From Nakamurella sp. (GTDB taxonomy: Bacteria > Actinomycetota > Actinomycetes > Mycobacteriales > Nakamurellaceae), in the NCBI GenBank assembly GCA_044223435.1, contig JBGALY010000011.1, positions 66,787-130,786 on the forward strand: 64,000 nt of DNA, given 5' to 3'. Positions 22,824-42,733 of the stretch are shown here, in pieces (position 1 is the stretch's first letter; each line of letters begins with the position of its first letter). The position numbers and the translations under genes are program-made. Under the pieces are notes generated by a model. It made no database searches and was not told the DNA's origin. It saw nothing but the letters and a program-made list of their open reading frames with translations.

Positions 22824-24458
22824 TCAGCGGACCGCGCGGTCGTCCCGGCGCCGCAGCGCCCGGCCGGCCCGGTGTCCGGTCGGGCGGCCGCGGTCGACGG
22901 CGAGGACGCCGTTGACCAGGACGTACGGAATGCCCGCGGCCGGCTGCCGGGGCTCGGTGAAGGTCGCCGTGTCGGCGACGGTCGTGGGGTCGAACAGCAC
23001 CAGGTCGGCGGCGTAGCCCTCGCGGACAAACCCGCGATCGGCCAGCCGCAGCCGAGTGGCGGGTCGGCCGGTGAGGTGGGCGACGCACTCCTCCAGGCCG
23101 AGCAGGCCGAGCTCCCGGCTGTAGTGCGCAAGGTAGCGGGGGAAGGTGCCCCAGGCCCGGGGATGCGGCCGGTCACCGACGAGAATGCCGTCGCTGCCGC
23201 CCATGTGCGTGCGATGCTGCATGATCGCCCGGACGTTGTCCTCGTGGCCGACGTGTTGCAGGATCGTGGTGGCGAGTTCGTCCCGGCGCAGCAGATCGAA
23301 GAACACGTCGGTGCCGGAACGCCCTTCCCGAGAAGCGATCTCGGCGATAGTGGACCCGACGAGACCGGCCAGGTCGGCGTTTGCGACCCCGCTGATCTGG
23401 ATGGTGTCCCATTCCACGACGACGCCGTGGCAGCCGTCGGAACCGGTCTCCTCGACATCGACCCGGATCCGCTCCCGAGCCGCCGGGTCCGCCAGCCGGG
23501 CCAGCAGTGCGTCCGGGCCGCCCGCGGCGGCCCAGCTGGGCAGCAGCGCGACCAGCGTGGTGCAACCCGGCAGGTAGGGGTAGGTGTCCAGGCTGATGTC
23601 GCACCCGTCGGCGAGCGCGGCGTCCACCAGGGCGAGGAACTCGCCGGCCCGGCCGGCGTTCTCGGCGAAGTTCATCGTGGCGTGGGTCAGGTGCACCGGG
23701 CATCCGGTCGACCGGGCGAGGTCCAGCATCTCGGTGTAGGCGGCCAGGGCACCGGCGCCGTAGGAGCGGGTGTGCGGGCAGTAGTAGCCGCCGTGGGCGG
23801 CGACCACCTCGCAGAGCGCGGCCAGCTCACCGGTGTCGGCATACATGCCCGGGGTGTAGGTCAGCCCGCTGGACAGGCCGACCGCCCCCGCCCGCAGGCT
23901 CTCACCGAGAATCTCCTGCATGCCGGCGATCTCGTCGACGGTGGCCGGCCGATCGTCCGGGCCGACGACGAGCAGCCGGAGGGTGCCCTGCGGTACCAGA
24001 TAGGCGGCGTTGGTGGCGATGCCCTGGTCCAGCCGGTCCAGGAACTGCGCGACGGTGCGCCAGGAGAAGTCGAAGCCCGCGGGATTGCCGTTCCACCCGG
24101 CGATCTGCCGGCGCACCTGGGCCAGCACCGCGTCGTCGACCGGGGCGTAGGACAGGCCGTCCTGGCCGAGTACCTCGGTGGTGACGCCCTGGCTGATCTT
24201 GGCGATGTGGTCCGGGTTGAGCAGGATCTGCAGATCGGAATGGGCGTGCATGTCGATGAAGCCGGGCGCGACGATCAGGCCGGTGGCGTCGACGACGCGC
24301 GTCGTCGATGGATCGGTGAGCAGGTCGGCGCAGTCACCGATCCGGGCGACGGTCGATCCGCTGATCGCGACGTCGGCCCGGTAGCGCGGCTCGCCGGTGC
24401 CGTCGACGACGGTGCCGCCGGCCAGCACGATGTCGACCGGGTGTGCGGGCATGGTCAT
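22824..24458 (-). CDS. N-acyl-D-amino-acid deacylase (D-aminoacylase) family amidohydrolase
   Basis: 544 aa. It has DIVLAGGTVVDGTG.PRYRADVAISGSTVARIG and the metal-binding motif APGFIDMHAHSD. Length is typical of the D-aminoacylase family. Confidence 0.85.
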   Translation of the reverse strand: MTMPAHPVDIVLAGGTVVDGTGEPRYRADVAISGSTVARIGDCADLLTDPSTTRVVDATGLIVAPGFIDMHAHSDLQILLNPDHIAKISQGVTTEVLGQDGLSYAPVDDAVLAQVRRQIAGWNGNPAGFDFSWRTVAQFLDRLDQGIATNAAYLVPQGTLRLLVVGPDDRPATVDEIAGMQEILGESLRAGAVGLSSGLTYTPGMYADTGELAALCEVVAAHGGYYCPHTRSYGAGALAAYTEMLDLARSTGCPVHLTHATMNFAENAGRAGEFLALVDAALADGCDISLDTYPYLPGCTTLVALLPSWAAAGGPDALLARLADPAARERIRVDVEETGSDGCHGVVVEWDTIQISGVANADLAGLVGSTIAEIASREGRSGTDVFFDLLRRDELATTILQHVGHEDNVRAIMQHRTHMGGSDGILVGDRPHPRAWGTFPRYLAHYSRELGLLGLEECVAHLTGRPATRLRLADRGFVREGYAADLVLFDPTTVADTATFTEPRQPAAGIPYVLVNGVLAVDRGRPTGHRAGRALRRRDDRAVR

Positions 24459-24486
24459 GGTGTCCTTCGGTTCCGGAAAACGGGGA

Positions 24487-25800
24487 TCAGAAGTAGGTGG
24501 GGATCAGGTCGACCACGGTGGGATCGGAGCTGGTGTGGTCGTCGATGAGCGGGATCAGCCGCCACTTGTCGAAGGCCGTGCAGGGGTGGGACAGCCCCAG
24601 TCGCAGGACGGTGCCGACCGCGAGCTCGTCGGCGACCTCCGCCGGGAAGCGCAGAAAGCCGTGCTGGTCGTTGAGCGCACTGACCCGGACGTCGGCCAGG
24701 ACGCGGGCACTGTCCTGGTCCGATCGACCCCGGATGGCCTGGGCCGTCGGCAGCCCCTCGTCGAACGGCAGGTCGCGCTTTCCGGCGTCGAACAGGGCCA
24801 GGCCAGGCTCGGGGGTCGAGACAATGGTGACCCACCCGTGCATCGCGGATTCGAGATGGTCCGGTTCGCCGCGGGCGGCGCCGTCCAGCGGTGAGATCGA
24901 CCGGTAGAAGCCGTCGTCGTGGATCGGGTAGGCACCGGAACGCAGCACCACCCGCGTTGCGATACCGCGGGCTCCGTCGATGTCCACGAGGCCGCCGAGC
25001 TCGTCGGCCACCAGGTCGAAGTACGCGCTGCCGCCGGCGGTGACCACGACCGACGCGGACTCATAGAGACCGTCGGCGTGCAGCCGACGGTGCAGGTCGG
25101 CGACCGCGCGCAGGTACCCGCGGACCGCGGCCAGCCCGTCGGGGGACCGGTCGTGGGCCAGCGCCCCCTCGTACCCGCCGGTCCCGACGAGGCGCAGCTC
25201 GGGCGCCGCGGCCACGTCACGGGCCACCTGAAGGGCCTGGTCGATGCTGCGGGCGCCGGTCCGACCGCCTGGCCCGCCGAGTTCGACGACCACGTCCAGC
25301 GGCCGGGTGGCGCCGCGGGCGGCCAGCGACTCGCGCAGGATGCGCACCGCGGGACGGCTGTCGACCCAGCTGCTGAACTCGAACGATGGGTGGGCGTCGA
25401 GCTCCGCGGAGATCCAGTCGATGCCGCCGGCCGAGGCCAGCGTGTTGGCCAGCATGATGTTCTGCACGCCGAACGATCGGGCCACCTGGACCTGCCACGG
25501 CGTCGCCAGGGTCAGTGCCGTGGCTCCGTGGTCGAACAGCCGCGCCCACAGGGCCGGCGCCATGGTGGTCTTGCCGTGCGGCGCGAGGTCCAGGTGACGG
25601 GTCGCCGTCCACCGCTGCATGGCGGCCAGATTCGCCTCGAGCACTCGCCGGTCGACGGTCAGCAGGGGGGTGGCGAAGTCGGCCAGCGGCGGGGCTCCGG
25701 CGACCGCCCGCTCGACCGTCCTGCCCCACAGGGCGGTGGGCATCGACTTGTGCCAAGGGCCGATCACCAGGTCCCGGTGGACCGAACTGGGGATGGGCAT
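24487..25800 (-). CDS. PLP-dependent alanine-racemase-N-fold enzyme (D-serine dehydratase/D-threonine aldolase-like amino-acid deaminase)
   Basis: 437 aa. It has LLTVDRRVLEANLAAM, a PLP-lysine context LAPHGKTTMAP, and a C-terminal HPCTAFDKW. Confidence 0.7.
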   Translation of the reverse strand: MPIPSSVHRDLVIGPWHKSMPTALWGRTVERAVAGAPPLADFATPLLTVDRRVLEANLAAMQRWTATRHLDLAPHGKTTMAPALWARLFDHGATALTLATPWQVQVARSFGVQNIMLANTLASAGGIDWISAELDAHPSFEFSSWVDSRPAVRILRESLAARGATRPLDVVVELGGPGGRTGARSIDQALQVARDVAAAPELRLVGTGGYEGALAHDRSPDGLAAVRGYLRAVADLHRRLHADGLYESASVVVTAGGSAYFDLVADELGGLVDIDGARGIATRVVLRSGAYPIHDDGFYRSISPLDGAARGEPDHLESAMHGWVTIVSTPEPGLALFDAGKRDLPFDEGLPTAQAIRGRSDQDSARVLADVRVSALNDQHGFLRFPAEVADELAVGTVLRLGLSHPCTAFDKWRLIPLIDDHTSSDPTVVDLIPTYF

Positions 25801-26412: not shown

Positions 26413-27147
26413 GTGACCGGCCCGGGAGGAGCGAGGATGGCGAGTCAGAGTGTGCGAGCGACGGGCGGTGATGCCGCCGTCCCGGGCACGGTGGAAACCA
26501 TCGAGGAACTCCAGGCGCTGCTGGCCCCGGTGATGCGGGCCATCGCCACGGCCGTGGGGCCGCATTGCGAGGTCGTCCTGCATGACCTGTCCAGCCGGCA
26601 CGTCGATCTGCGGCACACCATCCGCGCCATCGAGAACCCCCAGGTGACCGGGCGATCCGTCGGGGGCCCGTCGACGAACCTCGGCCTGCAGGTCCTGCGG
26701 GACGAGGCGGCCGACCACAACGCCTTCGGCTATCGCGGCCAGACCGAGGACGGCCGGCAGCTGCACTGTTCATCGGTGTACTACCGCAACGCGGCCGGCC
26801 ACGTCATCGGCGCGCTCTGCGTCAACGTCGACATCACCCCGCTGCAGCACGCCCAGGCACTGATCGGTTCGCTGCTGCCCGCGACGGGGGCGGATACCCG
26901 GGCCAAGGAGACCCACGCCCCGGACATCGCGACCGTTTTCGACGCACTGTTCGAATCTGCGGTCGATGCGGTCGGCAAACCGGTCTCGATGATGGACCGG
27001 GCCGACCGGATGGACGTCCTTGCCACCCTGGATCAGCAGGGTGCCTTCGAGATTCGCCGGTCGGTCGAGCTCGTCTCGCGCCGCCTGGGCATCTCCAAGG
27101 TGACGGCCTACGCCTACCTCGACGAGCTGCGCAAAGCGGCTTCCTGA
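26413..27147 (+). CDS. YheO/DauR-like transcriptional regulator (PAS-like sensor plus C-terminal HTH)
   Basis: It has HCEVVLHDL...IRAIENPQVTGRSVG.P.TNLGLQVL and a C-terminal HTH VSRRLGISKVTAYAYLDEL. It is divergent from the RidA-to-kdgK operon. The start could be 26413 (GTG) or 26437 (ATG). Confidence 0.75.
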   Translation: MTGPGGARMASQSVRATGGDAAVPGTVETIEELQALLAPVMRAIATAVGPHCEVVLHDLSSRHVDLRHTIRAIENPQVTGRSVGGPSTNLGLQVLRDEAADHNAFGYRGQTEDGRQLHCSSVYYRNAAGHVIGALCVNVDITPLQHAQALIGSLLPATGADTRAKETHAPDIATVFDALFESAVDAVGKPVSMMDRADRMDVLATLDQQGAFEIRRSVELVSRRLGISKVTAYAYLDELRKAAS

Positions 27148-27290: not shown

Positions 27291-27680
27291 ATGACGGTGT
27301 TCCGCTCCAAGGATCAGGCGCAGGACCTGTTCGCCGAGCTGTTCCGGATCCTGCTCGACGATCCGGACTTCCGCACCCGGCTCCGGGAAAATCACCTCAC
27401 CGTCCAGATCATCCATACCAAGCCCGACTTCATCCTTCATCTCGATCCGGACGGGGTACGCATCGACGACGTCCCGGAAAAGCCCGTGATCAGCATCAAG
27501 ATGTCCTGCGACACCGCGCACGCCTTGTGGTCGGGAACCCTGCTCATGCCCCTCGCCGTCGCGACCGGCAAGCTACGGGTCCGCGGCAGCATGGCGAAGG
27601 TCCTTGAGTTCGCGCCCATGCTGCGACCGGCGTTCGACCAGTACCACCAGCTCGCCGCGGCCGCCGGCGTGCCCGGCTGA
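27291..27680 (+). CDS. SCP2 (sterol carrier protein 2-like) lipid-binding domain protein
   Basis: 129 aa: MTVFRSKDQAQDLFAELFRILLDDPDF...ISIKMSCDTAHALWSGTLLMPLAVATGKLRVRGSMAKVLEF. The C-terminal G.l...G segment is typical of SCP2. Confidence 0.75.
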   Translation: MTVFRSKDQAQDLFAELFRILLDDPDFRTRLRENHLTVQIIHTKPDFILHLDPDGVRIDDVPEKPVISIKMSCDTAHALWSGTLLMPLAVATGKLRVRGSMAKVLEFAPMLRPAFDQYHQLAAAAGVPG

Positions 27681-27969
27681 GGAGCCGTCGCTCGCCACGG
27701 TCGACCCGATCGGCCAAATCCGCGGCATGCCCGCGCTTGCCGTGCTCGGCGACCCGATCGATGTCCGTACCGGGGCCATCCCACCGTCCACCTGACTCCC
27801 GTTGCCGGAACGTCGGCCGGAACCGGTGCACCGTCGATCGGTGAACGCGCCCGGAGCGCGCGCCACCCGCGGATCGTGGTCGCCGCACTGCCGCTCACCA
27901 CCTTCACCACCGGACTTCCCGGTCCCGCCCGCTGCCCCGATCGACGCACCGTCGAAGGAGTTCACCCCG

Positions 27970-29196
27970 ATGACCACCGACCTCGCCCCGCTCGAACCGC
28001 TTCAACCGATCATCAGCCAGCCCGAGGACATCGAGGACCTGCGCCGGCTGGCCCGTGAGTTCGCCGTGACCCACGTGCGCCCCCGCGCGCTGGGCAACGA
28101 CGCCGCCCCGGCCGACCACTTCGACTGGGAGCTGGTCCGCATGGGACACGATCTGGGGTTGATGCGGGTGGTCATCCCTCGTGAGTACGGCGGTCTCGGC
28201 TTGGGCGAACTCGGCGTCGCCGTCGCGCTGGAGGAAATCGCCGCCGAATGTGCCGGCACGGCACTGATCTTCGGCGCCGCAATGTTGGGCCAGGCGCCGA
28301 TCCTGCTGTCGGCCGATCCGCAGCTGCAGGCCCGGTTCCTGCCGTTGTTCTCGGGCGACGAACCCGTGCTGGCCTGCAACGCGATCACCGAGGCCGACGC
28401 GGGGTGCGATCTGCTGATCCCGGAGAACGCGGAGCTCGCCCAGAACGTCATGACCGCCCGGCACGACGGGGACCATTACCTGCTCACCGGTGAGAAACGG
28501 TTCATCACCAACGGCAAGGTCGCCCACTATGCGACCGTCTTCGCCAACATCGAGGGCCGGCCCGGGGCAACCGGTTTGACCTGCTTCGTGGTACCGCTGG
28601 ACAGCCCGGGGGTGGAGCGTGGCGACGTCGCCGACAAGATGGGGTACCGGGCGTGCCTGGGCACCGAGCTGCGCTTCACGCAGGTGCGGGTGCCGGAGGA
28701 GAACATGATCGGCGGTGAGGGCGGCGGCGTGTACATCAACATCGCCCAGATGAACATGGCCCGCGCGGCCGTGGCCGCGATCTCGACCGGAATCGCCCGC
28801 AGTGCCTTGGATCTGGCCGTGCAATGGTGCGGGACCCGGATTCAGGGCGGCAAGAAGCTGCACGAACACCAGTTCACCGCGCGCAAGCTGGCCGAGATGT
28901 CGGCGAAGGTCGAGGCGTCCAGACTGCTGTACCTGCGGGCGGCGCATCTGGCCGACAACGAATTACCGGTGCCGGCCTTCGAACCCGCGGTGGCGAAGAT
29001 GTTCGCCGACCGGGCCGCCATCGAGGTGGCCGAGGAGGCGATGTCGCTGATGGGCGCGCGCGGCTACGTGAAGGAGTTCCGGCTGGAGAAGATCATGCGC
29101 GACGCCCTGGGTACCCGGATCTATGAGGGCACCCCGGAAGTGCTCGCCCTGGCCATCACCGACTCGATCTACCAGCCGGACGACGAGGGCTGGTAA
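27970..29196 (+). CDS. Acyl-CoA dehydrogenase family protein
   Basis: ATG at 27970 follows GAAGGAG. It has CNAITEADAGCD, GEKRFITNG and a C-terminal RDALGTRIYEGTPEVLALAI (catalytic Glu context). Confidence 0.85.
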   Translation: MTTDLAPLEPLQPIISQPEDIEDLRRLAREFAVTHVRPRALGNDAAPADHFDWELVRMGHDLGLMRVVIPREYGGLGLGELGVAVALEEIAAECAGTALIFGAAMLGQAPILLSADPQLQARFLPLFSGDEPVLACNAITEADAGCDLLIPENAELAQNVMTARHDGDHYLLTGEKRFITNGKVAHYATVFANIEGRPGATGLTCFVVPLDSPGVERGDVADKMGYRACLGTELRFTQVRVPEENMIGGEGGGVYINIAQMNMARAAVAAISTGIARSALDLAVQWCGTRIQGGKKLHEHQFTARKLAEMSAKVEASRLLYLRAAHLADNELPVPAFEPAVAKMFADRAAIEVAEEAMSLMGARGYVKEFRLEKIMRDALGTRIYEGTPEVLALAITDSIYQPDDEGW

Positions 29197-29232
29197 GGGG
29201 ACCGGGCACAAACCGGCGGAGGGGGAGAGCAC

Positions 29233-30135
29233 ATGTGTGAAGGTGAGACACGGGCCAGTACGGCCCGGTACGCACGCGACATTCTGGCCCTGCAGGACGG
29301 CCTGAACTTCCGCAGCCTGCTGGCGGTACCGCGCCACGACGTTGCCTACTACGCCCGGCGGCCCGGCGGACTGGTCACCCTGGGCCTGCGCACCGACCAG
29401 ATGTCCAAGCGATACCTGTTGGGTCTGCAGGGTTTCCGCCTGGCCCAGTATCTCCAGCTGGGCTGGGTCTGCCAGGACACGATCGCCGCCCGCGGATTGT
29501 TCTGTGAGCCCGTCCACGGCCTTCGAAATTCGGATCTGCACCTGGTCACCGTCTCGCCCGGCGGCGAGATCCTGGGATATCTCGGGCTTGTCGGCTCGTC
29601 CGACGAGGTACCCCGGTTGCTCCAGGACCCGGACCGGGCCCGGTTCCCGGTGGAGACGGCCCACGGAATCAACCTGTTCGATGTCGTTCCTCGGGACCGG
29701 GTGACCCGGACCGACCAGGTCGGGGAGCTCAAGAGATTCGTGCATCGCCGATCGATGTCGGACCGGATGCTGCGGTTACGCGTCACCCTCGAACTGCTCC
29801 TGGCCGCCGGCAGTCTCGTGCTCGGTCAGTCCGGCCTGCGCTTGGTGGTCGGCGATGTCGAGGAGCACGTCGCGCTGCGGCACCTGATGCTGGTGGGGCT
29901 GCAGGTCCGGCTGATCGAGGGCACCACGCCACAGCTCCGGTCCGGCGATTACCTGCACCTGGCCTACGTTCGGCGCGGTGCGGTCAAGCCGTTCATCGCG
30001 CAGGTGCCGGCGCATGAGGAGCTCGCGGCGCGGATGCGCCGGCTCGATCGCGTCCTGTCCGCCGAGGATCTGGGACTCGCGGTCCGCGATCTGATCGGCC
30101 GCGGGGACGGCACGATCAGCCGGGTGGCGGCATGA
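29233..30135 (+). CDS. Hypothetical acyltransferase, LuxI / N-acyl amino acid synthase-like (GNAT-fold) by motif resemblance
   Basis: ATG follows GGAGGGGGAG. 300 aa. FRLAQYLQLGW, CEPVHGLRNSDLHLVTVSPGGEILGYLGLV, ARFPVE and VGELKRFVHRRSM parallel the LuxI/NAS pattern (RLR..VF...LGW; E.D..D..S.H.L; lP.E; E.SRf.V). This is a motif-level call only. Confidence 0.4.
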   Translation: MCEGETRASTARYARDILALQDGLNFRSLLAVPRHDVAYYARRPGGLVTLGLRTDQMSKRYLLGLQGFRLAQYLQLGWVCQDTIAARGLFCEPVHGLRNSDLHLVTVSPGGEILGYLGLVGSSDEVPRLLQDPDRARFPVETAHGINLFDVVPRDRVTRTDQVGELKRFVHRRSMSDRMLRLRVTLELLLAAGSLVLGQSGLRLVVGDVEEHVALRHLMLVGLQVRLIEGTTPQLRSGDYLHLAYVRRGAVKPFIAQVPAHEELAARMRRLDRVLSAEDLGLAVRDLIGRGDGTISRVAA

Positions 30136-30989
30136 CGACGGCACCGACCGATTTCTACTCCGAGCTGACGGCGCGCAATACGGGTTTCATCTCGCCCCGC
30201 GCGCAGGGCCGGGTACGGGAGGCCACCGTGCTCGTCGCCGGGTGCGGGTCGACGGGGGGAGCCGCGGTCGAGCCCCTCGCCCGGGTGGGGGTGCAGCGGT
30301 TCATCCTCGCCGACAACGGCGACTACGAGCTGAACAATCTCAATCGCCAGCAGGCCGGAATCGCCGACATCGGACGCAACAAGGCCCTCGTGAATGCCGA
30401 ACGGGTCCGCTCGATCAATCCGCACGCCCGGGTGGACGTGCGAGTGGACGGGATCGCTCCGGGGACGGTGGACGATCTCGTCGGCCGCGCCGACGTGGTC
30501 GTCGACGGGGTCGATGTGACCGAGATGGCCGGGATGGCCGCCAAGTTCGCCCTGCACGAGAGCGCGGCCCGGCTGCGGGTGCCGGTGATCAGCGGGTACG
30601 ACATGGCCGGTCTGCAGTTCGTCCGCTGCTATGACTACCGCGCGGCGATGGCTCCGTTGGCGGGCGCCGTCGACCGGCGCCGCATCGAGCGGTCGACCCC
30701 CTGGGAATTGCTGGCCCGGCTCATCCCGAAGCGGGTGGTCCCGGTGGAGATGATCCGGTCCCTGCGGGGCGCTTCGGCCGACCCGGACTTCCACGTCTCC
30801 CAACTGGTCTACACGTCGATGCTGTTCGGCGCCATCACCACCCGGATGACCGTCGAGCTGCTCGCCGGGGTGCCGGTGCGGCGGAGCGTCCGGATCGACG
30901 TGCATCAGGCCGTGCGGCGTCCGTTGGCGAACCTCCGGTTGTCGGTGACCAAGCCGGTCGAGCTGATCCGGACGTTGAGGAGCCTGTAG
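30132..30989 (+). CDS. ThiF/MoeB/HesA-family E1-like adenylyltransferase (adenylation domain only)
   Basis: It has an ATGA overlap with the upstream gene. 285 aa. Nucleotide loop is VLVAGCGSTGGAAVEPLARVGV, followed by LADNGDYELNNLNRQ. There is no rhodanese or Cys-rich C-terminal domain. Confidence 0.8.
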   Translation: MTTAPTDFYSELTARNTGFISPRAQGRVREATVLVAGCGSTGGAAVEPLARVGVQRFILADNGDYELNNLNRQQAGIADIGRNKALVNAERVRSINPHARVDVRVDGIAPGTVDDLVGRADVVVDGVDVTEMAGMAAKFALHESAARLRVPVISGYDMAGLQFVRCYDYRAAMAPLAGAVDRRRIERSTPWELLARLIPKRVVPVEMIRSLRGASADPDFHVSQLVYTSMLFGAITTRMTVELLAGVPVRRSVRIDVHQAVRRPLANLRLSVTKPVELIRTLRSL

Positions 30990-30993
30990 GACG

Positions 30994-33405
30994 ATGGGTC
31001 GCCACCTGCGAAAGGTCACCGCTGCCGATCGGATGGTCGGCGTCCCACCGCGTAGCCGACGGCTGATCCTGGTCGGCTGGCTCGTCGTGGCCGCCCTGGC
31101 CGGGCTGTTCGCCCGCGGGCTGCCCGATCAGCTCAGCGGGGGTGGCTGGTCGGTGCCCGGATCGGAGTCCGAACGGGCGGCGGCCCTTGCGGCCGACGGG
31201 TTCGCCGGCCGCGGCGCGTCCACGGTGACGCTGGTCGTCACGGACACGACGGCCGAGCCCGGTTCGGCCGACTTCGACAGCCGGGTCGGTGCGGCCATCG
31301 CCACGGTCGCCGGCGACCCGACCCTCGACGTCCGGTCGCAATACGGTTGGGGCACCCTGTCGGCCGCCGCCCGGGCACCGTTCGTCGGATCGGACGGCCG
31401 AACGGTGATCGAGTATCTCGCGCTGGGCTTGGACGACGGGGACGCCCGGCGCGAGCTACCCGCCATCCAGTCGGAGCTGACCACCCGCTTCGCACCCAAC
31501 GGGCTGGAGGTCATCCTCGTCGGCACCGCCGCGTTCTGGGCCGAGGTCAATGCGCTGAGCGAGTCCGGCCTGGTCCGGGCCGAACTCATCACCCTGCCGC
31601 TGCTGATGATCATTCTCGTGCTGCTGTACGGCGGCGTGGTGGCGGCCGTCGTTTCGCTGGTGGTCGCCGGGTCCTCGATCGTGTTCACGTCGGCGTTGCT
31701 GTCCGTGGTAGCCGCCCAGGTCGAGTTGTCGGTGTTCGTGCAGAACACCGCGACGATGCTGGGCCTGGGCATCGGGGTCGACTACTCGCTGTTCATGATC
31801 AGCCGGTACCGCGAGGAGCTCCGCGCCGGGCGGGATGTCGACGCGGCGGTCGCGGCCGCCATCCGGACGTCCGGGCGCACGGTGTTCGCGTCGGGCGCGA
31901 CCGTCGTCCTCGCGCTGGCCAGCCTGTTCTTCATCCCGCTGAACGTCATCGCGTCGATCGCGCTCGGTGGGATCGTGGTGGTCGCCTTCTCGGTCTTCGT
32001 GACGACCGTGTTGCTCCCGCAACTGCTGCGGACGCTCGGTCGCCGGATCGACGCCGGCCGGCCTCCGTTCGTGCCCCGACCGTCGGATCGGCCGGCGGTC
32101 CGCTGGCAGCGCTTCGCGCTGCGCATCATGCGCCGGCCGGTGGTGTTCCTGCTCATCAGCGCGGCCGCATTGGCGGCAGCCGCGGCGCCGTCGGCCCAGC
32201 TGCGCACCTTCACGCCCGACGCCCGGATCGTGCCCACGGACTCGATCGTCCGGATGGGGTACGAGCGGGTGGCCGACGGGTTCGGACCCGGGGCGACCGC
32301 ACCGGTGCTGCTGGTGCTCGACTCGACCGACCCGCTGACCGTGGACGCGGCTGGCGGTCCGCTCGTGCAGTTGCGGGCGGCCCTGGCCGCGCTGCCCGGG
32401 GTGACGGCGGTCCGCTCCGTTCTGGACGTCGGCGACGCGGTGAACCCGGAGGCACCGGCGGTGGTGCTCGACCGGAGCGTGGCTGGGGCCATCGGGCCGG
32501 ACGGGCAGGCGACGATCGCGCACTACCTGTCCTCCGACGGGCGGCGAACCGTGCTCGAGGTCGTCGGAACCGACTACGCCGCGAGCGAGGCCTCGGTGCG
32601 ATTGCTCACGGACGTCCGGGCGACGGTCGACCGCATCGATGGCCCCTGGCGATCCTCGATCGGCGGGGAGACGGCGGAAGGTACCGACAGCAACCGGGTC
32701 ATCGACGACCACATGATTCAGGTCGTGGCGGTCATGTTGCTGGTGGTGTACCTGTTGCTGCTCATCACCTTCCGGTCGGTGATCCTGCCATTGAAGGCGA
32801 TCCTGATGAACCTGCTGTCGTTGGGTGCCACCTACGGCGTGCTGGTGCTGGTCTTCCAGCACGGCTGGGGCGGCGACTGGCTCGGCGGCGGTGCCCAGCA
32901 GGTGCAGAACTTCGTCCCGGTGCTGCTGCTGGCCCTGCTGTTCAGTCTGAGCACGGACTATGAGGTCTTCCTGCTCGAACGGGTGCGCGAGGAGTACCGG
33001 ACGACCGGGGACAACGAGCGCAGCGTGGCCGAGGCGCTGGCCCGGACGGCGCCACTGATCTCCGGCGCGGCCGTGCTGATGATCGCGGTGTTCGGCGCCT
33101 TCGCCTTCGCCGCGATCATGCCGATGAAGCAGCTCGGGCTCGGCATGGCGGTCGCGATCGCCATCGACGCCACCTTGATCCGGCTCGTCGTGGTACCCGC
33201 CTCGATGCGGCTGCTCGGCCGGTGGAACTGGTGGCCGGGCATCCGGCCGCCGCGGCGGCCGCGGCCCCCGGCACCGACCCGGCGGGCCACCGTGCGGACC
33301 CCGGTGGCCGGCACCGGGTCGGGCACCACCGAGGATGCCCGCCACTGCGACGACGACCCGGCAACGCCCGTCGGCCGGCACGCCCGGGTGACCGTCGGCG
33401 GCTGA
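30994..33405 (+). CDS. MMPL-family (RND superfamily) membrane transporter
   Basis: 803 aa with a duplicated 6-TM plus periplasmic-loop architecture. It has GVDYSLFMISRYREEL and STDYEVFLLERVREEY (paired MMPL motifs). The start could be 30994 or 31033. Confidence 0.9.
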   Translation: MGRHLRKVTAADRMVGVPPRSRRLILVGWLVVAALAGLFARGLPDQLSGGGWSVPGSESERAAALAADGFAGRGASTVTLVVTDTTAEPGSADFDSRVGAAIATVAGDPTLDVRSQYGWGTLSAAARAPFVGSDGRTVIEYLALGLDDGDARRELPAIQSELTTRFAPNGLEVILVGTAAFWAEVNALSESGLVRAELITLPLLMIILVLLYGGVVAAVVSLVVAGSSIVFTSALLSVVAAQVELSVFVQNTATMLGLGIGVDYSLFMISRYREELRAGRDVDAAVAAAIRTSGRTVFASGATVVLALASLFFIPLNVIASIALGGIVVVAFSVFVTTVLLPQLLRTLGRRIDAGRPPFVPRPSDRPAVRWQRFALRIMRRPVVFLLISAAALAAAAAPSAQLRTFTPDARIVPTDSIVRMGYERVADGFGPGATAPVLLVLDSTDPLTVDAAGGPLVQLRAALAALPGVTAVRSVLDVGDAVNPEAPAVVLDRSVAGAIGPDGQATIAHYLSSDGRRTVLEVVGTDYAASEASVRLLTDVRATVDRIDGPWRSSIGGETAEGTDSNRVIDDHMIQVVAVMLLVVYLLLLITFRSVILPLKAILMNLLSLGATYGVLVLVFQHGWGGDWLGGGAQQVQNFVPVLLLALLFSLSTDYEVFLLERVREEYRTTGDNERSVAEALARTAPLISGAAVLMIAVFGAFAFAAIMPMKQLGLGMAVAIAIDATLIRLVVVPASMRLLGRWNWWPGIRPPRRPRPPAPTRRATVRTPVAGTGSGTTEDARHCDDDPATPVGRHARVTVGG

Positions 33406-33429
33406 CTCCACCCACTCGAAAGGTGGCCC

Positions 33430-34050
33430 GTGATGACCATTTCCATCGCCATTCCCCGGTTCGCCCGGGCGACCGAGGGCGACCCCACCTGGGGCGTCTC
33501 CGCACCGTTGCAGGCTCACGAGCGGGCCAATCTGGCCGCCGTGACCACGGTCGCGGCGTTGTGGAACGAACGCGCCGTCGACGGCATCCTCGAGCACTAC
33601 GTGGACGGGATCGTCTGGCGCAACGTCGCGACCGGGGAAGTCCTGCGCGGCAAGACGCAGGTGGGGCAGTACCTGCACGAGTTGTTCAGCGCCGTGCCGG
33701 ACCTGTCGATGACGATCACCAGCCGGATCGCCCGGGGGCGGTTCGTCGCGGAGCAGTACGTCATCGCCGGGACCCATCTGGGCACCCTGTTCGGCATTCC
33801 GGCCACCGGGCAACCACTTCGATTGCCGGCGGCCAGCTTCGTCGAGATGCGCGACGGCAAGTTCCAGGAGGACCACTTCTATCTGGACGTCAACAGCCTG
33901 CTCGGTCAGATGGGCCTGATGCCGCCGGCGACCTTCACCCGCACCCGGCCGGGCCGGATCGGCATGGCCGTCGCGGTCTTCCTGCGATACCCGTGGCGCT
34001 CGCTGACCGGATCGCACCGGCGCCCGGCCCGGCCGCGGCCGGTCGACTGA
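33430..34050 (+). CDS. SnoaL-like / ester cyclase (NTF2-fold) protein
   Basis: It has AVTTVAALWNERAVDGILEHYVDGIVWRN, HLGTLFGIPATGQPLRLPAASFVEMRDGKFQEDHFYLD (ester-cyclase type). A hydrophobic, basic C-terminal tail follows. Confidence 0.7.
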   Translation: MMTISIAIPRFARATEGDPTWGVSAPLQAHERANLAAVTTVAALWNERAVDGILEHYVDGIVWRNVATGEVLRGKTQVGQYLHELFSAVPDLSMTITSRIARGRFVAEQYVIAGTHLGTLFGIPATGQPLRLPAASFVEMRDGKFQEDHFYLDVNSLLGQMGLMPPATFTRTRPGRIGMAVAVFLRYPWRSLTGSHRRPARPRPVD

Positions 34051-34111
34051 CCAGGTCGGGCGGCCGGGCCGCACCGAGACCCACCCACACGTGAAAGGGC
34101 GACACCGAAAC

Positions 34112-35761
34112 ATGGTTCAGAACAACGCCTCCGGCTATGACGTGATCGTCTACGGGACCGGCATCGGCGGTACCACCTGCGCGCTCACCCTGGCCCAGCA
34201 GGGCGCCCGCACCTTGCTGATGGAGAAGAACGAGTGGACCGGCGGGTACGCCCACGGCTCCGGCAGCCACGGGTTCTACTGGGACCACGGTGGGCACATC
34301 GTGCTCGCCTACGGTCTCGGCATGCCCACCCGGCAGATCTTCGAGCGGCTCGGGATCCCGGAGCGGATCGATATGATCCCCGAACGGATGGATTTCCGCT
34401 GCGTGTTCCCAGGCGAAGGGCTCGAACTGCCGGCGGATGTCACCGTGGCGGCCGAGCAGTTGGGCCGGCGGTTTCCCGCCGAACGGGACAGCATCGTGAC
34501 GATCTTTCAAACGATGCAGCAGGTCATCGACGACTTCCTCAGGTTGGTTCCCTCGTTCCGCGCGCCGCGGCGGCCGGACGAACGCCGGCCCTTCGACACG
34601 CTGCTCGAGCAGTTCCAGCGGCCCTGGCTCGGCGACGCGATCGCCCCGCTGGCCGGGTTGGTCCACTTCCCGGGGCACACCCTGTTGCGCTACCAGAACC
34701 GGACCCTGCAACAGCTGCTGGACGAGCATCTGACCGACCCGGAGGCCAAGGCCTATCTGTCGCAGATGTGTGTGGGGGTCGGCACCCCGCCCGACGAGCT
34801 GTCGGTGATGATGGCCAGCCTGTTCATGATTCACGCGATGCAGACGATGTGGCTGCCCCGCGGCGGTTTCGGCGCGCTGATCGACACCATGCTGCAAATG
34901 TTCAAGGAGGCGGGTGGGCAACTCGTGACCGGCGCCGAGGTGGACCGGGTGTGCCTGACCGACGGCCGGGCCACCGGTGTGCAGACCGTCGACGGCCGGC
35001 GCTTCGAGGCCAAGGCGGTGGTCTGCGCCTCGGACGCCCGCCGGCTGTTCGACCGGCAGCTTCCCGCCCGCGTCGTCCCGCGCCGGATGCGGCGCCGCCT
35101 CGCGACCGCGCCGACCACCCCGTCGTTCTTCCAGGTGCAGTTGGGTGTCGACCTCGATCTGAACCGGTACCGGGACACGCTCAAGCGCCTCAACTTCGTC
35201 TACCCGTCGTTCGACGTCAACACCGGCTGCCGGAACTTCGCCGCGGGCAACGTCGAGGAGGCCGCGTACTACCTCTACGTCGCCACCTTCCACCAACCGG
35301 ACATGGCACCGCCCGGAATGCACTCGATCAAACTCGAATGCCCGACCAACCTGGTCAGCACGGGCATCGACTGGGAGCGGGACAAGGAAGCGATTGCCGA
35401 CACCTTCATCCGGCGGTCCGAGGCGCTGATCCCCGATCTGCGCCAGCACATCGTGGTCCGCCGGGTGTTCACCCCGCTGGACATGGCCGGCACCACCAGG
35501 AATGCCGACGGGGCCTTCGCCGGGTGGGCCTTCGGGCCGGAGATGTTGAGTCGCCGACGCCCGGCCCAGCGGACCCCGGTGCCCGGACTGTATCTGGCCG
35601 GTCAGTGGACCCGACCCGCGGCGGGGCTGCCGGGCACGAGCGTCTCCGGGTACAACACGGCGGGCATGGTGCTGGCCGACGTCCTGGGCCGTACGGACTG
35701 GTTGGCGCCCGGCTCGTCCGCGATCGCCGACGGCGCGTCGGCGGACCCGGCCCGCCGGTAG
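34112..35761 (+). CDS. Phytoene desaturase-family (CrtI-like) NAD(P)/FAD-dependent oxidoreductase
   Basis: It starts MVQNNASGYDVIVYGTGIGGTTCALTLAQQGARTLLMEKNEWTGG (dinucleotide fold) and has C-terminal GLYLAGQWT.P.AGLPG. A GTG at 34091 is an alternative start. Confidence 0.8.
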   Translation: MVQNNASGYDVIVYGTGIGGTTCALTLAQQGARTLLMEKNEWTGGYAHGSGSHGFYWDHGGHIVLAYGLGMPTRQIFERLGIPERIDMIPERMDFRCVFPGEGLELPADVTVAAEQLGRRFPAERDSIVTIFQTMQQVIDDFLRLVPSFRAPRRPDERRPFDTLLEQFQRPWLGDAIAPLAGLVHFPGHTLLRYQNRTLQQLLDEHLTDPEAKAYLSQMCVGVGTPPDELSVMMASLFMIHAMQTMWLPRGGFGALIDTMLQMFKEAGGQLVTGAEVDRVCLTDGRATGVQTVDGRRFEAKAVVCASDARRLFDRQLPARVVPRRMRRRLATAPTTPSFFQVQLGVDLDLNRYRDTLKRLNFVYPSFDVNTGCRNFAAGNVEEAAYYLYVATFHQPDMAPPGMHSIKLECPTNLVSTGIDWERDKEAIADTFIRRSEALIPDLRQHIVVRRVFTPLDMAGTTRNADGAFAGWAFGPEMLSRRRPAQRTPVPGLYLAGQWTRPAAGLPGTSVSGYNTAGMVLADVLGRTDWLAPGSSAIADGASADPARR

Positions 35762-35781: not shown

Positions 35782-36159
35782 ATGCACCGGATCTTCACCA
35801 CGAGCGTCGCGTCGGTCTATCCGCTGTATCTGTCGAAGGTGGAGCGCAAGGGCCGCACGAAGGACGAGCTCGACGAGGTCATCGGCTGGCTCACCGGATT
35901 CGGTGACGCCGAGCTCCGCCGCCACCTCGACCGGGAGAGCACCTTCGAGGAGTTCTTTGCCGCCGCCCGGCTCAATCCGCACGCGGCCCTGATCACCGGT
36001 TCCGTTTGCGGGGTGCGGGTCCAGGACGTCGAGGATCCCCTGATGCGCCGGATCCGCTACCTGGACAAGCTGGTCGACGAACTCGCCAAGGGTCGGCCCC
36101 TGGCCAAGATCCTCCGTGGCGACCCCGCTTCGGGGCGGCCGGCCGCCACCCCCGGCTGA
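35782..36159 (+). CDS. DUF2200-family protein
   Basis: It starts [40 protein letters not shown] and has [28 protein letters not shown]. Confidence 0.75.
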
Positions 36160-36232
36160 GTACGCCCGGGCGGGGGCCCGACACGCCTCGCCCGCTCCCG
36201 TGCCCGTCGATCCGGGTTCGTCGGGCAGGATC

Positions 36233-36904
36233 GTGGTCGTGGACGAGCAGCGGATCCGGGTGTGGTCGGACGGAGCCTGCCGGGGCAATCCCGGCCCGGG
36301 CGGTTGGGGTGCGCTGATCCGCGCGGCCGGACGGCCGGACGTCGAACTGTCCGGCGGCGAGGCGGCCACCACCAACAACCGGATGGAGTTGCGCGCGGTC
36401 GTGGAGGCACTGCGCAGTCTGCCCGATGGCACCGTGGTCACCGTGCACGCCGACTCCACCTATGTGCTCAACGGCATCACCAAGTGGCTGGTCGGGTGGC
36501 GTCGCAACGGTTGGTTGACCGGCAGCAAGCAGCCGGTCAAGAACGTCGACCTGTGGCAGGAACTGGACGAGCAAGCGAACCGGCACACGGTCGAGTGGCA
36601 GTGGGTGAAGGGCCATGCGGGCGACCCAGGAAACGAACGGGCAGACGCGCTGGCCAACGCGGGGGTGCCCGGCGGCATGGGCGAGGGTCCGGCCGGCGAC
36701 GGGCGTCCGGGCCGGCGCCGGCCCGCTCGCGGCCCGAGCACGTCGGGCACGTCGAGCACGTCGGGCAGCGCGGGCGGGTCCGGCGGGATGGCGGCCAGGT
36801 TCCCTGGCACCTGCCCGCAGTGCGCCGGCCGGATTGCCGTGGGGGATCGGATCCGCAAGGCCGGGCAGCAATGGGTATGTCTGGAATGCGACACGGCAGC
36901 ATGA
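36233..36904 (+). CDS. rnhA: Ribonuclease HI with low-complexity linker and C-terminal CxxC...CxxC zinc-ribbon tail
   Basis: It has [40 protein letters not shown] and [17 protein letters not shown]. The tail is [30 protein letters not shown]. The start is uncertain: GTG at 36233 is chosen, and the track ORF starts at 36116. Confidence 0.8.
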
Positions 36905-36953
36905 CCGGTGTCGAGCCCGGACGCGATCAGCACGCACAAGGGGGAGGGGACGG

Positions 36954-37841
36954 ATGACCGATTCATGGCCCGAACTGCCGGTCGCCGGCTGGGCGGACAC
37001 CCGGGACACCGTGCAGCTGTGGACCCAGATCGTCGGCAAGGTGCGGCTGGCTCTGGCCCCGCCGGAGAACCACTGGTGGCAGGTCCCGCTGTACGTGAAT
37101 GCCTCCGGCCTGACCACCTCCCTGATGCCGTACCGGGACGGCGGTGTGGAGGTGGAGTTCGACTTCGTCGGCCACGAGCTGATCGTGCGCACGACGCACG
37201 GCGAGACTGCATCCTTCCCGCTGGCCCCGATGGCGGTCGCGGACTTCTACCACAGGTTCCGGCGGGTGCTCGAGGAGCTGGATGTCGATGTGACGATCGT
37301 GCCGCGACCGGTCGAGCTGCCGGTGGCGATCCCGTTCGCCGAGGACCGTACGCATCACAGCTACGACCCGGACGCGATGCACCGGTTCTGGATCTCGCTG
37401 GTGAGCGCCCAGCGAGTGTTCAGTCGCTTCCGGGGCGAGTACTCGGGCAAGTGCAGCCCCGTCCACTTCTTCTGGGGGGCATTCGATCTCGCCGTTACCC
37501 GGTTCTCCGGCCGAGGTGCGCCGACCCACCCGGGCGGCGTTCCCAACTGCCCCGACCGGGTCATGCATCTGGCCTACGACCGGGAACTGGCGTCCTGCGG
37601 TTACTGGCCCGGCGGTGCAGCCGAGGGCGCGTTCTATGCCTACGCCTACCCGGAGCCTCCCGGCTACCGGGAGTACCCCATCCGGCCTCGGGACGCATCG
37701 TTCGACCCCACGCTGGGCGAGTTCCTGCTCCCGTATACCGCCGTGCGTACAGCGGCCGACCCGGATGCCTACCTGTTGGAGTTCCTGCAGTCGGCGTTCA
37801 CCGCCTCGGTCGAACTCGCGCGGTGGCCGGCGATCGAGTGA
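36954..37841 (+). CDS. DUF5996-family protein
   Basis: ATG at 36954 follows GGGGGAGGGGA. Product starts MTDSWPELPVAGWADTRDTVQLWTQIVGKVRLALAPPENHWWQVPLYV and includes HFFWGAFDLAVTRFSGR. Confidence 0.7.
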   Translation: MTDSWPELPVAGWADTRDTVQLWTQIVGKVRLALAPPENHWWQVPLYVNASGLTTSLMPYRDGGVEVEFDFVGHELIVRTTHGETASFPLAPMAVADFYHRFRRVLEELDVDVTIVPRPVELPVAIPFAEDRTHHSYDPDAMHRFWISLVSAQRVFSRFRGEYSGKCSPVHFFWGAFDLAVTRFSGRGAPTHPGGVPNCPDRVMHLAYDRELASCGYWPGGAAEGAFYAYAYPEPPGYREYPIRPRDASFDPTLGEFLLPYTAVRTAADPDAYLLEFLQSAFTASVELARWPAIE

Positions 37842-39461: not shown

Positions 39462-39539
39462 TGGTGGAACCCGGCGCCGGGCCACCCGGTTGGCGGCGGG
39501 CAACGCCGGGTCGTCCCCGACGGGGCGCAGTTCGGCCGG

Positions 39540-40535
39540 TTGATGCCGGTGCCCGCCGGGTACCGGCATCGGGTGAGCACAGCGTCCCCGGCCACGGCCG
39601 ATCTCGACCGTTCGGTCCGCCGACCCGACCCGGTCGATGTCGCCGCCGACCCCGAGATCGGCCGCCAGGTGCACGATCTGCTGGCGCCGGCGTTTGCCGG
39701 TGATCGCCCCGGCCGGTCGCCGGTCGAGGTCGTCGACATCGGCGCCAATCCGATCGACGGCGATCCGCCGTACCGCCCGCTGCTGGACGCCGGATGCTGC
39801 CGGGTCACCGGTTTCGAGCCCCAGGCACCGGCGCTGGCCGATCTGCGGGAGCGGGCCGGCCCGGCCGAGCGATACCTGCCCTACGCGGTCGGCGACGGCG
39901 GTCGACACATCTTGCACCTGTGTGCCACATCGGGTTTCGCCAGCCTGCTGGAGCCGGATGCGGCGCAGCTCGACCTGCTGATCGACTTTCCGCAGCTGGC
40001 CCGGGTCACCGGCCGGGAGCCGGTGCAGACCCACCGCCTGGACGCGATCGCCGAGATCGCCGAGATCGACTACCTCAAGATCGATATCCAGGGCGGCGAA
40101 CTGCCGGTGCTGGCCGCCGGCCGGGGCCGGCTCGGCGGGGCCGTGGCCGTCCAGACCGAGGTCGGATTCCACCGGCTGTATCGCGACCAACCCACGTTCG
40201 CCGATGTCGACCTGGAACTGCGCAGCCAGGGCTTCGTCCCGCACCGGTTCGTGACGACGCGGACCTGGCCGATCGCTCCGGTGGTCTGGGCCGACCCGCT
40301 GGAGCGGTACGCCCGTCAGCTCGTCGAGGCCGACCTGCTGTACGTCCGTGACCCGGTCCACCTGGACGAGTACACCGACGCCCAACTCGGCCGGCTCGCC
40401 CTGATCGCCGACATCGCCTACGGCAGCTTCGGACTGGCATTGCGGTGCGTGGTGGCGTTGATCGACCGGGGCGTGCTCGACCGGACGGCCCAGGACCGGT
40501 ACCGCCGGTTGGCGGCCGGCCGTCTGCCCGGCTGA
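39540..40535 (+). CDS. FkbM-family methyltransferase
   Basis: It has VVDIGANPIDG, GFEPQ and IDYLKIDIQGGELPVL, which are typical FkbM motifs. Confidence 0.75.
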   Translation: MMPVPAGYRHRVSTASPATADLDRSVRRPDPVDVAADPEIGRQVHDLLAPAFAGDRPGRSPVEVVDIGANPIDGDPPYRPLLDAGCCRVTGFEPQAPALADLRERAGPAERYLPYAVGDGGRHILHLCATSGFASLLEPDAAQLDLLIDFPQLARVTGREPVQTHRLDAIAEIAEIDYLKIDIQGGELPVLAAGRGRLGGAVAVQTEVGFHRLYRDQPTFADVDLELRSQGFVPHRFVTTRTWPIAPVVWADPLERYARQLVEADLLYVRDPVHLDEYTDAQLGRLALIADIAYGSFGLALRCVVALIDRGVLDRTAQDRYRRLAAGRLPG

Positions 40536-40562
40536 GGACCGACCGAACCGGTCCTGGACCAC

Positions 40563-41864: not shown

Positions 41865-42733
41865 GATGCGGCCACCGACGCTTCGTCCGCGGCCGCGGCG
41901 TCGATCACGGTCCAGGTGTCGCGATCCGGGTCGTACCGGGCCAGACCGAGGTCGGCGAAGGCCGTCAACCAGCCCTGCATGGGCCAGAATCCCCAGCGCC
42001 GACGAAAGACCGTCGCGTTGCGGACGATGTCGACCAGATGGGGCGTCGGGGGCGAGGGCGAGTCGTGATACTGGTGGAACGCGTCAGCGTCGCCCCACCA
42101 CCGCAGGTCGATGCCGAGCCGGAACGCGTGGTAGCCCAGATCGGTGTCCTCGCCGCCGTAGCCGTAGTACCGCTCGCAGAACCCGCCCAGCCGCCGCCAG
42201 GTGCGGGCCGAAACCGCGAAGGACAACGACCAGAACAGTTGCCAGTCCGCCGACGGGATCGACTGTCCCGGGTCCGGTCGGGGGCGGGCAGGGTGCGGCC
42301 GTCCGCGCAGGGCACCCGGATCGCTGCCGGCCGCGTCGGTCCCTTCGGCCAGGTACTGCACCACCCCGCAGTGCAGGGCCGGCCGCGTCTCCTGCCGGAC
42401 GGCTGTGGTGTAGGTCTGCACCAGCGACGGGCCGGGCACGCAGTCCACGTCCAGGAAAACCAGGACGTCGGCCCCCGCGGCCAGCGCGGCCGCGGCGCCG
42501 GCATTGCGCGCGGCGGCGAGCGGAAGTGCCCCGTCACCGGGGATGTCATGCAGCAGCAGGGTGCAGCCGGAGCCGGCCAGCGGTCCCGTGCGGGTCGCGG
42601 CGGTGGCGATCGGATCGCCCATGCCGACCACGACGTAAAGGTCGGGCCGGCGGTGACCCAGGCGCAACCCGCGCTGCTGCGCGTGCAGGTGCTCGTGCCG
42701 CCCACGGACGATGGTCACGACCGCGGTGGTCAT
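41861..42733 (-). CDS. Glycosyltransferase family 2-like (galactosyltransferase-related) protein
   Basis: It has VVTIVRGRHEHL, ARNAGA, LVFLDVDCVP and GYGGEDTDLGYH. It overlaps both neighbours by 4 nt. Confidence 0.75.
   Translation of the reverse strand: MTTAVVTIVRGRHEHLHAQQRGLRLGHRRPDLYVVVGMGDPIATAATRTGPLAGSGCTLLLHDIPGDGALPLAAARNAGAAAALAAGADVLVFLDVDCVPGPSLVQTYTTAVRQETRPALHCGVVQYLAEGTDAAGSDPGALRGRPHPARPRPDPGQSIPSADWQLFWSLSFAVSARTWRRLGGFCERYYGYGGEDTDLGYHAFRLGIDLRWWGDADAFHQYHDSPSPPTPHLVDIVRNATVFRRRWGFWPMQGWLTAFADLGLARYDPDRDTWTVIDAAAADEASVAAS

Follow-up and report, generated by a model that had tools for sequence, protein, structure and literature searches.

A conserved SCP2, acyl-CoA dehydrogenase, LuxI-fold and ThiF gene cassette in Nakamurella sp., a probable variant of recently discovered lipoamino-acid pathways

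A run of seven genes (27291-35761) within a 64 000-nucleotide stretch of Nakamurella sp. DNA (contig JBGALY010000011.1, positions 66 787 to 130 786; the whole stretch is hereafter called the window) most likely represents a variant, as yet uncharacterised, of a kind of lipoamino-acid pathway that was discovered recently, and we consider it probable that the encoded proteins make, modify and export an N-acyl amino acid or an oxazolone-derived form of one. The conserved unit consists of four genes, encoding a small SCP2-like protein, an acyl-CoA dehydrogenase (ACAD), a 300-amino-acid (aa) protein with a predicted LuxI-like GNAT fold and a ThiF-like adenylating enzyme, while the MMPL, SnoaL-like and CrtI-like genes that follow them are accessory. 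Our locus scan, made with one genome per GTDB species, yielded 80 loci, of which the 68 with full 10-kb flanks were used for counts. In all 68 of these loci, which come from other actinobacterial species, the GNAT gene is found together with the SCP2-like, ACAD and ThiF genes, with the order and strand of the core being identical wherever the gene table of a locus was examined. The MMPL, SnoaL-like and CrtI-like genes were found in only 20, 15 and 6 of the 68 loci respectively, so that the original prediction of one seven-gene block holds for its four-gene core and not for the block as a whole.

The same core is present in the lipothrenin (lit) cluster of Streptomyces aureus LU18118 (GenBank ON169987; PMC10616846), which produces N-hexadecanedioyl-threonine lipoamino acids (PMC10616846). 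In Table 5 of that study, litI encodes a 124-aa hypothetical protein, litJ an ACAD, litL a 311-aa 'hypothetical protein' and litM a ThiF protein (PMC10616846). Equivalents of litI-litJ-litL-litM lie in the same order and on one strand in the window, where the cluster is laid out as follows (NAS, N-acyl amino acid synthase):

27291-27680, + strand: SCP2-fold small protein, 129 aa, LitI counterpart (Pfam SCP2, 21.6 bits)
27681-27969: spacer between the SCP2 and ACAD genes, 289 nt, no element found
27970-29196, + strand: acyl-CoA dehydrogenase, 408 aa, LitJ counterpart (all three ACAD domains)
29233-30135, + strand: LuxI/NAS-fold GNAT by structure model, 300 aa, LitL counterpart, presumed amino acid N-acyltransferase
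30132-30989, + strand: ThiF/E1-like adenylating enzyme, 285 aa, LitM counterpart (Pfam ThiF, 102 bits)
30994-33405, + strand: MMPL-family RND transporter, 803 aa, presumed exporter, accessory (Pfam MMPL, 280 bits)
33430-34050, + strand: SnoaL-like NTF2-fold protein, 206 aa, accessory (Pfam SnoaL, 72 bits)
34091-35761, + strand: CrtI-family FAD oxidoreductase, 556 aa, accessory (Amino_oxidase, 103 bits; crtI_fam, 159 bits)

All seven + strand open reading frames were recovered at the positions originally proposed, with a third-position GC of 0.84-0.92 typical of coding sequence, in high-GC actinobacterial DNA (about 71%). Six of the seven gene labels agreed with Pfam/NCBIfam, the 300-aa protein being the exception, and the SCP2 and GNAT folds were backed by AlphaFold and Foldseek. 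The junctions were also as first described, measuring, in gene order, 289 nt, 36 nt, an ATGA overlap shared by the GNAT and ThiF genes (30132-30135), 4 nt, 24 nt and 40 or 62 nt, the last value depending on the choice of CrtI-like start (the alternative ATG at 34113 gives a product of 549 aa).

The genetics of the lit cluster bear directly on the function of this core. Deletion of litL led to the loss of all N-acyl-Thr products, while deletion of litM left the L-Thr compound alone, the D-allo-Thr, N-hydroxy, N-acetylcysteine and dehydrobutyrine (Dhb) forms being gone (PMC10616846). Locus L007 in our set corresponds to litD-litS of Table 5 in function and order, a match made by the published table, with products one residue shorter than listed there for 14 of the 15 genes; the 90% cluster of its GNAT (P0094) holds a protein labelled Streptomyces aureus. 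The window proteins share 68% (ACAD), 55% (ThiF), 39% (GNAT) and 33% (SCP2-like) identity with those of L007, the 300-aa protein matching the LitL cluster P0094 with an E-value of 1.3e-48 over 97% coverage. On these similarities we identify the window cluster as a LitI/J/L/M-type cassette. It does not appear to be a lipothrenin cluster proper, because it is without FAAL, acyl carrier protein (ACP) and N-oxygenase genes. More fully, litB-H (KAS III, FAAL, R2-like protein, ACP, GDSL, GMC) are absent beside the core in the window, as are the AurF-like N-oxygenase litN, the DUF4873 and DLH genes, the SARP and TetR regulators and litK; the FAAL, ACP, GMC, AurF-like and DUF4873 genes were all present in the 18 lit-type loci. 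Given the absence of the N-oxygenase and other lit tailoring genes, a hydroxamate product would not be expected. Conversely, the window has an MMPL gene instead of an MFS gene, together with the SnoaL-like and CrtI-like genes that lit lacks.

The 300-aa protein matched no Pfam or NCBIfam family, and a search with this protein and 44 relatives at E-values up to 10 gave scattered chance matches only. A profile search of the sequences of solved structures with the same family returned a chance lectin repeat and nothing else. The family comprises about 100 clusters at 90% identity, all 'hypothetical' or nameless, with every organism-labelled member being actinobacterial, and an exhaustive profile search extended it to 296 representatives. 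An AlphaFold model based on an alignment of 45 family sequences (A1) had a mean pLDDT (predicted local distance difference test) of 90 and a pTM (predicted TM score) of 0.90. When this model was compared with the PDB using Foldseek, the acyl-homoserine lactone (AHL) synthases TofI, LasI, BjaI and MesI were all within the first six matches, while FeeM, an N-acyl amino acid synthase, and the AHL synthase EsaI ranked lower, amid generic GNATs (E 1e-6 to 4e-4 and TM by target 0.56-0.66 for the five AHL synthases). A LuxI/NAS-like GNAT had been proposed originally, to be given up should the protein model as any other fold; the predicted fold is a GNAT fold, and the model supports the LuxI/NAS-like assignment. 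An earlier di-iron/heme-oxygenase-like reading of the conserved Glu and His residues was dropped once the model showed this fold.

We also built a small LuxI alignment, with the LasI sequence checked against 1ro5, and compared it with A1 using hhalign (70% probability, E 4e-5). The invariant E165-L-K-R168-F of the family was paired with W-E101-L-S-R104-F of LasI, K167 standing in place of S103. Besides the GNAT-derived fold, the protein thus appears to have in common with the LuxI and FeeM types an E-x-[SK]-R-[FL] motif in the corresponding strand. In a relaxed, low-confidence alignment, F-R69-x3-Y73-x4-W78 of the family lies opposite R23-x3-F27-x5-W33 of LasI, which hints at a possible R-x3-[FY]-x4-5-W motif in the N-terminal helix. 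The LuxI residues D44, D47 and R70 (LasI numbering), which belong to the S-adenosylmethionine (SAM) site, have no conserved counterpart in the family. Further differences from the LuxI and FeeM types are its 100 additional residues, with extensions at both termini, and a ThiF partner that is always present. By its sequence, then, it would fall outside the LuxI family. In remote relatives the GNAT domain occurs as part of a fusion, its partner being either cyclic-nucleotide-binding domains or ThiF. Many proteins of the first kind (P0136-P0164 and P0199; locus L089) bear one or two C-terminal cyclic-nucleotide-binding domains, some adding an FAD_binding_4 or leucine-carboxyl-methyltransferase domain, an architecture which suggests acyltransferases regulated by cyclic nucleotides. 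A cluster look-up among the remote family matches, in which TyzA was sought, gave no named Mycobacterium tuberculosis member.

In the ThiF protein, the GxGxxG loop, the NNLNRQ motif and the DxxD magnesium site are retained across 82 orthologues, among which we found neither a conserved Cys beyond the G-loop nor CxxC pairs. A role as a thioester-forming acyl activator is disfavoured by this lack of a conserved catalytic Cys. The closest solved sequence is that of TcdA (E 6e-12), the tRNA t6A dehydratase, which carries out the ATP-dependent cyclisation of the N-carbamoyl-threonine carboxylate (PMC12596934, PMC5389693), a reaction chemically parallel to azlactone formation. The substrate of TcdA is, by contrast, a tRNA nucleoside, and the alignment is limited to the N-terminal 150 residues, the C-terminal half of the window protein being specific to its own family. 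Taken together, the absence of catalytic Cys and zinc motifs and the proximity to TcdA fit a direct cyclisation of the adenylate. A 584-aa ThiF-GNAT fusion was detected in the gammaproteobacterium Bermanella (L088, 2190-7735; contig 38% GC), with an ACAD gene and an MMPL/RND-type gene directly downstream, its ThiF part being 42% identical to the window ThiF. The GNAT-ThiF partnership accordingly appears to be both ancient and obligatory, and the presence of the fusion alongside ACAD and MMPL genes in a marine gammaproteobacterium indicates that the logic of the cassette extends beyond Actinomycetota.

The SCP2-like protein lies barely above the PF02036 cut-off (21.6 against 21.3 bits); many of its orthologues carry PF02036. 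Its AlphaFold2 model (pLDDT 92.4) best matched yeast, insect and human SCP2 and UbiJ-SCP2 (TM 0.65-0.7), including a complex with a C16 fatty acid, and the protein is presumed to bind a lipid chain or acyl-CoA. Its C-terminus varies across loci (VPG, VPAAS, LPV and VDG are among the endings), GG being absent; with this and the SCP2 fold, we rejected the protein as an E1 substrate. The absence of a ubiquitin-like (Ubl) or sulfur-carrier partner for ThiF, remarked upon in the original prediction, is thus reinforced by the fold of the small protein and by the missing catalytic Cys. A weaker Foldseek match (ranks 47-50) was the C-terminal SCP2-like domain of mycobacterial Eis acetyltransferases, which offers a precedent for a GNAT working with an SCP2-fold module. 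The ACAD is the best conserved of the four core proteins, with 58-77% identity across loci (47% in the outlier L047) compared with 35-66% for the GNAT. The catalytic base Glu386, in a YEG motif, is kept in 82 orthologues, and the closest solved relatives are short- and medium-chain acyl-CoA dehydrogenases (SCAD/MCAD; E 3e-61).

Three characterised systems combine a comparable acyltransferase with a ThiF enzyme. OxzA (N-acyltransferase) and OxzB (a ThiF-nitroreductase) of Pseudoalteromonas rubra make tyrazolones, and TyzACB (Rv2336-Rv2338c) and TrzAS (Rv1356c-Rv1355c) are acyl-oxazolone pathways of M. tuberculosis (PMC10404671, PMC12856293). TyzA (Rv2336), a 322-aa 'hypothetical' protein with FeeM and BjaI as its closest structural relatives, acylates L-Tyr or L-Phe using lauroyl-CoA. 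Its product then undergoes ATP-dependent cyclisation by TyzB (ThiF) and desaturation by the flavin oxidase TyzC; the tyz cluster adjoins mmpL9 (PMC10404671). In TrzAS, cyclisation obligatorily precedes desaturation (PMC12856293). By fold and published description, these systems and the window cluster have in common a LuxI/FeeM-fold protein of about 300 aa with known or presumed N-acyltransferase activity, a known or presumed ThiF cyclase and a flavoenzyme. The flavoenzyme is a nitroreductase-superfamily oxidase in Oxz/Tyz/Trz, whereas none of the seven window genes encodes a nitroreductase domain and the window has an ACAD instead. The SCP2-fold protein, an obligatory fourth member, is a further difference, as is the product, no oxazolone being known for the LitL/LitM type. 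Work published in 2021-2025 has consequently overtaken two novelty claims of the original prediction: the four core genes are those of litI/J/L/M, with OxzAB, TyzACB and TrzAS as characterised combinations of an NAS with ThiF, so that the gene set is no longer without a characterised pathway, and the view that LuxI/NAS-type enzymes were essentially undescribed in Actinobacteria is outdated by the characterisation of M. tuberculosis TyzA and TrzA (PMC10404671, PMC12856293). A literature search for ThiF and ACAD in combination with SCP2 or MMPL found nothing relevant.

Beyond the folds, conserved motifs, synteny and fusions observed above, we infer the substrates, the oxazolone intermediate in the LitL/LitM family and the roles of the SCP2-fold, ACAD, SnoaL-like and CrtI-like proteins. 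With acyl-CoA or acyl-ACP as donor of a fatty acyl group, the GNAT would acylate a free amino acid at its alpha-amine, and the translationally coupled ThiF enzyme would adenylate the free alpha-carboxylate of the resulting N-acyl amino acid. Attack of the amide oxygen on this adenylate would give a 5(4H)-oxazolone (azlactone), which may persist, reopen after epimerisation at C-alpha to yield a D-form, or lose its beta-substituent to yield a dehydro-amino acid. Azlactones racemise readily at C-alpha, and a Thr-derived azlactone can eliminate water to give Dhb. On the strength of this peptide chemistry and the Oxz/Tyz/Trz precedent, an azlactone intermediate would account by analogy for the LitM phenotype, i.e. 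for the conversion of L-Thr to D-allo-Thr and for the Dhb forms. The SCP2-fold protein probably cradles the lipid chain or acyl-CoA, the MMPL pump would export the product, and the SnoaL-like and CrtI-like proteins may act as lineage-specific tailoring enzymes. Two options are envisaged for the ACAD: a conservative one, in which it would desaturate the acyl-CoA at the 2,3-position before transfer, SCP2 presenting the lipid, and a bolder one, in which it would substitute for the nitroreductase-type desaturase of Tyz/Trz and act on the oxazolone. In the latter, the azlactone would serve as an activated carbonyl mimicking a thioester.

Several points weigh against this proposal. Deletion of litJ had minor effects and left the chain unaltered (PMC10616846), which leaves the role of the ACAD unexplained despite its universal presence and speaks against an essential role at least in the lit host. 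The original prediction of an exported unsaturated N-acyl amide is affected accordingly: an exported N-acyl amide is still the best reading, given the N-acyl-threonines of lit, while the unsaturation is unproven. Amide-bond formation by LitL was a 'vague hypothesis' of the lit authors, who proposed dehydration-rehydration for LitM and reported no oxazolone among the lipothrenins (PMC10616846). With only 39% identity between the window GNAT and LitL, specificity for the amino acid and the acyl group cannot be transferred from one to the other. Neither the autoinducer synthase model Autoind_synth (PF00765) nor the NAS model Acetyltransf_5 (PF13444) matched any of the 45 family members at E-values up to 10.

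The weak litJ phenotype would also fit a run made up of two or more unrelated units, i.e. a four-gene cassette, possibly fatty-acid-catabolic, next to independent MMPL, SnoaL-like and CrtI-like genes. SCP2 and ACAD are classical partners in beta-oxidation, the ACAD here is closest to SCAD/MCAD, and the three downstream genes accompany the core in a minority of loci, as counted above. However, an exporter gene, either MMPL or MFS, follows ThiF in most loci, and the SnoaL-like and CrtI-like genes turn up repeatedly next to the core (44-77% identity), not always on the same strand and in three or more different arrangements. Such recurrence in varied arrangements points to a real, if lineage-restricted, functional link rather than to chance. 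Moreover, the core sits inside a proven biosynthetic cluster in lit, and the short window junctions (4-62 nt) contain no terminator-like site. We regard this division into separate units as improbable.

A second alternative is an AHL quorum-signal system, in which the LuxI-like enzyme would use SAM together with an enoyl-CoA supplied by the ACAD and MMPL would export the signal. The top structural matches, with the CoA-dependent BjaI and MesI among them, and the LuxI-like E-x-x-R-F and R..Y....W motifs are what this explanation would predict; yet TyzA, with the same fold matches, acylates free amino acids, and the homologous lit cluster gives N-acyl-threonines and no lactones. The SAM route needs no ATP-dependent activation of a carboxylate, whereas every one of the 68 loci has a ThiF gene, and fusions of ThiF to the GNAT also occur. 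With D44, D47 and R70, invariant in the LuxI alignment, lacking conserved counterparts, and with the Autoind_synth hidden Markov model matching none of the 45 family members, an AHL synthase is unlikely, to a degree that leaves it little chance. A protein-modification system, with ThiF as a true E1 acting on the small or another protein and the GNAT as a protein acyltransferase, is rejected as hardly credible: ThiF does belong to the E1 superfamily, remote GNAT relatives are fused to cyclic-nucleotide-binding domains like the cAMP-regulated lysine acetyltransferase Rv0998, and Rv0998 itself is among the fold matches, but the small protein has the SCP2 rather than the beta-grasp fold, with a C-terminus that differs among loci, a conserved catalytic Cys is missing from ThiF, the lit genetics show small-molecule phenotypes and no E2, JAMM or Ubl gene is conserved near the core in related loci.

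The four-gene cassette, for which we favour the synthesis of an N-acyl amino acid or its oxazolone-derived form, has three genomic architectures and was detected in no fewer than 80 actinobacterial species. Type A, found outside Streptomyces and including the window, consists of the core and MMPL with variable extras, namely an SBP-VWA gene before ThiF and SnoaL-like, CrtI-like and AurF-like genes. Type B (18 loci, L007 among them) is the long cluster of Streptomyces, Kitasatospora and Nocardia, with genes for FAAL, R2-like protein, ACP, GDSL, GMC, AurF-like, DUF4873, DLH, TetR and SARP proteins beyond the core. In type C (27 Streptomyces loci) the core comes with genes for MFS, a response regulator of the LuxR type, a ketosynthase and a reductase-hydrolase. 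In the 20 loci with MMPL this gene follows ThiF, its place being taken by an MFS transporter in the Streptomyces types. Both the strand of the SnoaL-like gene and the side of the core where it lies vary among loci, and its PDB relatives are ester and polyketide cyclases. The CrtI-like gene occurs in three different arrangements (58-77% identity). Its product is closest in the PDB to CrtI (4dgk, 1e-33) and reached 159 bits against the phytoene desaturase CrtI model (TIGR02734), under the 238-bit cut-off, and would thus be a relative of the CrtI family, not a CrtI orthologue.

Two further features of these architectures were observed. A 569-aa SBP_bac_11 + VWA protein is encoded between the GNAT and ThiF genes at L006 (10911-12620) and 11 other type-A loci, in Intrasporangiaceae-like genomes, while Geodermatophilus has a DivIVA-like 274-aa open reading frame there instead; the window has neither. 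At L004/L005 (6492-7670, - strand) and in about 12 type-C Streptomyces loci a divergent nitroreductase-family gene lies immediately upstream of the cassette. It adjoins conserved glycolysis genes, and could be either a counterpart of the TyzC-type flavin oxidase or mere core-genome synteny.

Within the window cluster, the ACAD start was placed at ATG 27970, preceded by a GAAGGAG ribosome-binding site, instead of at TTG 27802. Independent gene calls on metagenome copies also yield a 408-aa product, which shows the 289-nt spacer to be real. No Rfam family, promoter-like or terminator-like site was detected in it, nor were terminator-like sites found at the other cluster junctions. The spacer persists in the metagenome copies of this organism, compared with about 40-60 nt in other genera. 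The exact SCP2 protein was found in 97 blocks of the contig index, the contigs examined being mostly metagenome assemblies; the host organism is uncultured.

The run of co-directional genes extends further than the seven originally delimited, since an eighth, encoding a DUF2200 protein (35782-36159), starts 20 nt past the CrtI-like stop and could be co-transcribed with the cluster. It is followed by an RNase H gene (at about 36116-36904) and a DUF5996 gene (36615-37841). The DUF2200 and RNase H genes did not occur in related loci, and all three are probably unrelated housekeeping genes. A few kb downstream, at 39462-42083, are genes for an FkbM-type methyltransferase (+ strand) and a family-2 glycosyltransferase (- strand), both with the appearance of cell-envelope polysaccharide genes.

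Directly upstream and divergent (22824-25800, - strand) lie genes for a metallohydrolase of the PRK09061 subfamily (Amidohydro_3) and for a D-Ser-dehydratase/D-Thr-aldolase-like protein with a weak match to BhcC, and a YheO-type PAS+HTH regulator gene (26413-27147, + strand) ends 143 nt before the SCP2 gene. This trio could constitute a route for the deacylation and degradation of N-acyl-D-hydroxy-amino acids; a route of that kind would be in keeping with the D-allo-Thr chemistry of lit. As a conserved partner module the amidohydrolase and D-Thr-aldolase-like genes were nevertheless rejected, as none of 87 related loci holds a homologue; the regulator likewise had no homologue among these 87 loci.

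The N-acyl amino acids and acyl-oxazolones of bacteria form a newly recognised class of lipids, linked in M. tuberculosis to the ability to resist oxidative stress and survive within macrophages. Through the present analysis the LitL family, formerly 'hypothetical', gains a predicted fold and a probable activity, and its ThiF partner would tie the genetics of the lipothrenins to the chemistry of the oxazolones. What stands out is the obligatory ACAD-SCP2 pair and the decoration of the core with MMPL, SnoaL-like and CrtI-like genes. We tentatively suggest, as a possibility that we ourselves regard as doubtful, that the SCP2-ACAD-LitL-ThiF cassette constitutes a third actinobacterial route to lipoamino acids derived from oxazolones, and the most widespread one. 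An SCP2-aided ACAD would then act on the ThiF-made azlactone in place of the Tyz/Trz desaturase and ThiF would double as an ATP-driven N-acyl-amino-acid epimerase/dehydratase, while the window variant would export a new lipid, for the envelope or for signalling, of a soil actinobacterium that is abundant and uncultured. Should the proposed mechanism be true, it would provide an ATP-dependent route to D- and dehydro-lipoamino acids and possibly a new class of substrates for acyl-CoA dehydrogenases, as well as a search handle for many unannotated clusters, lit itself having been annotated by antiSMASH only as a 'fatty acid' cluster (PMC10616846).

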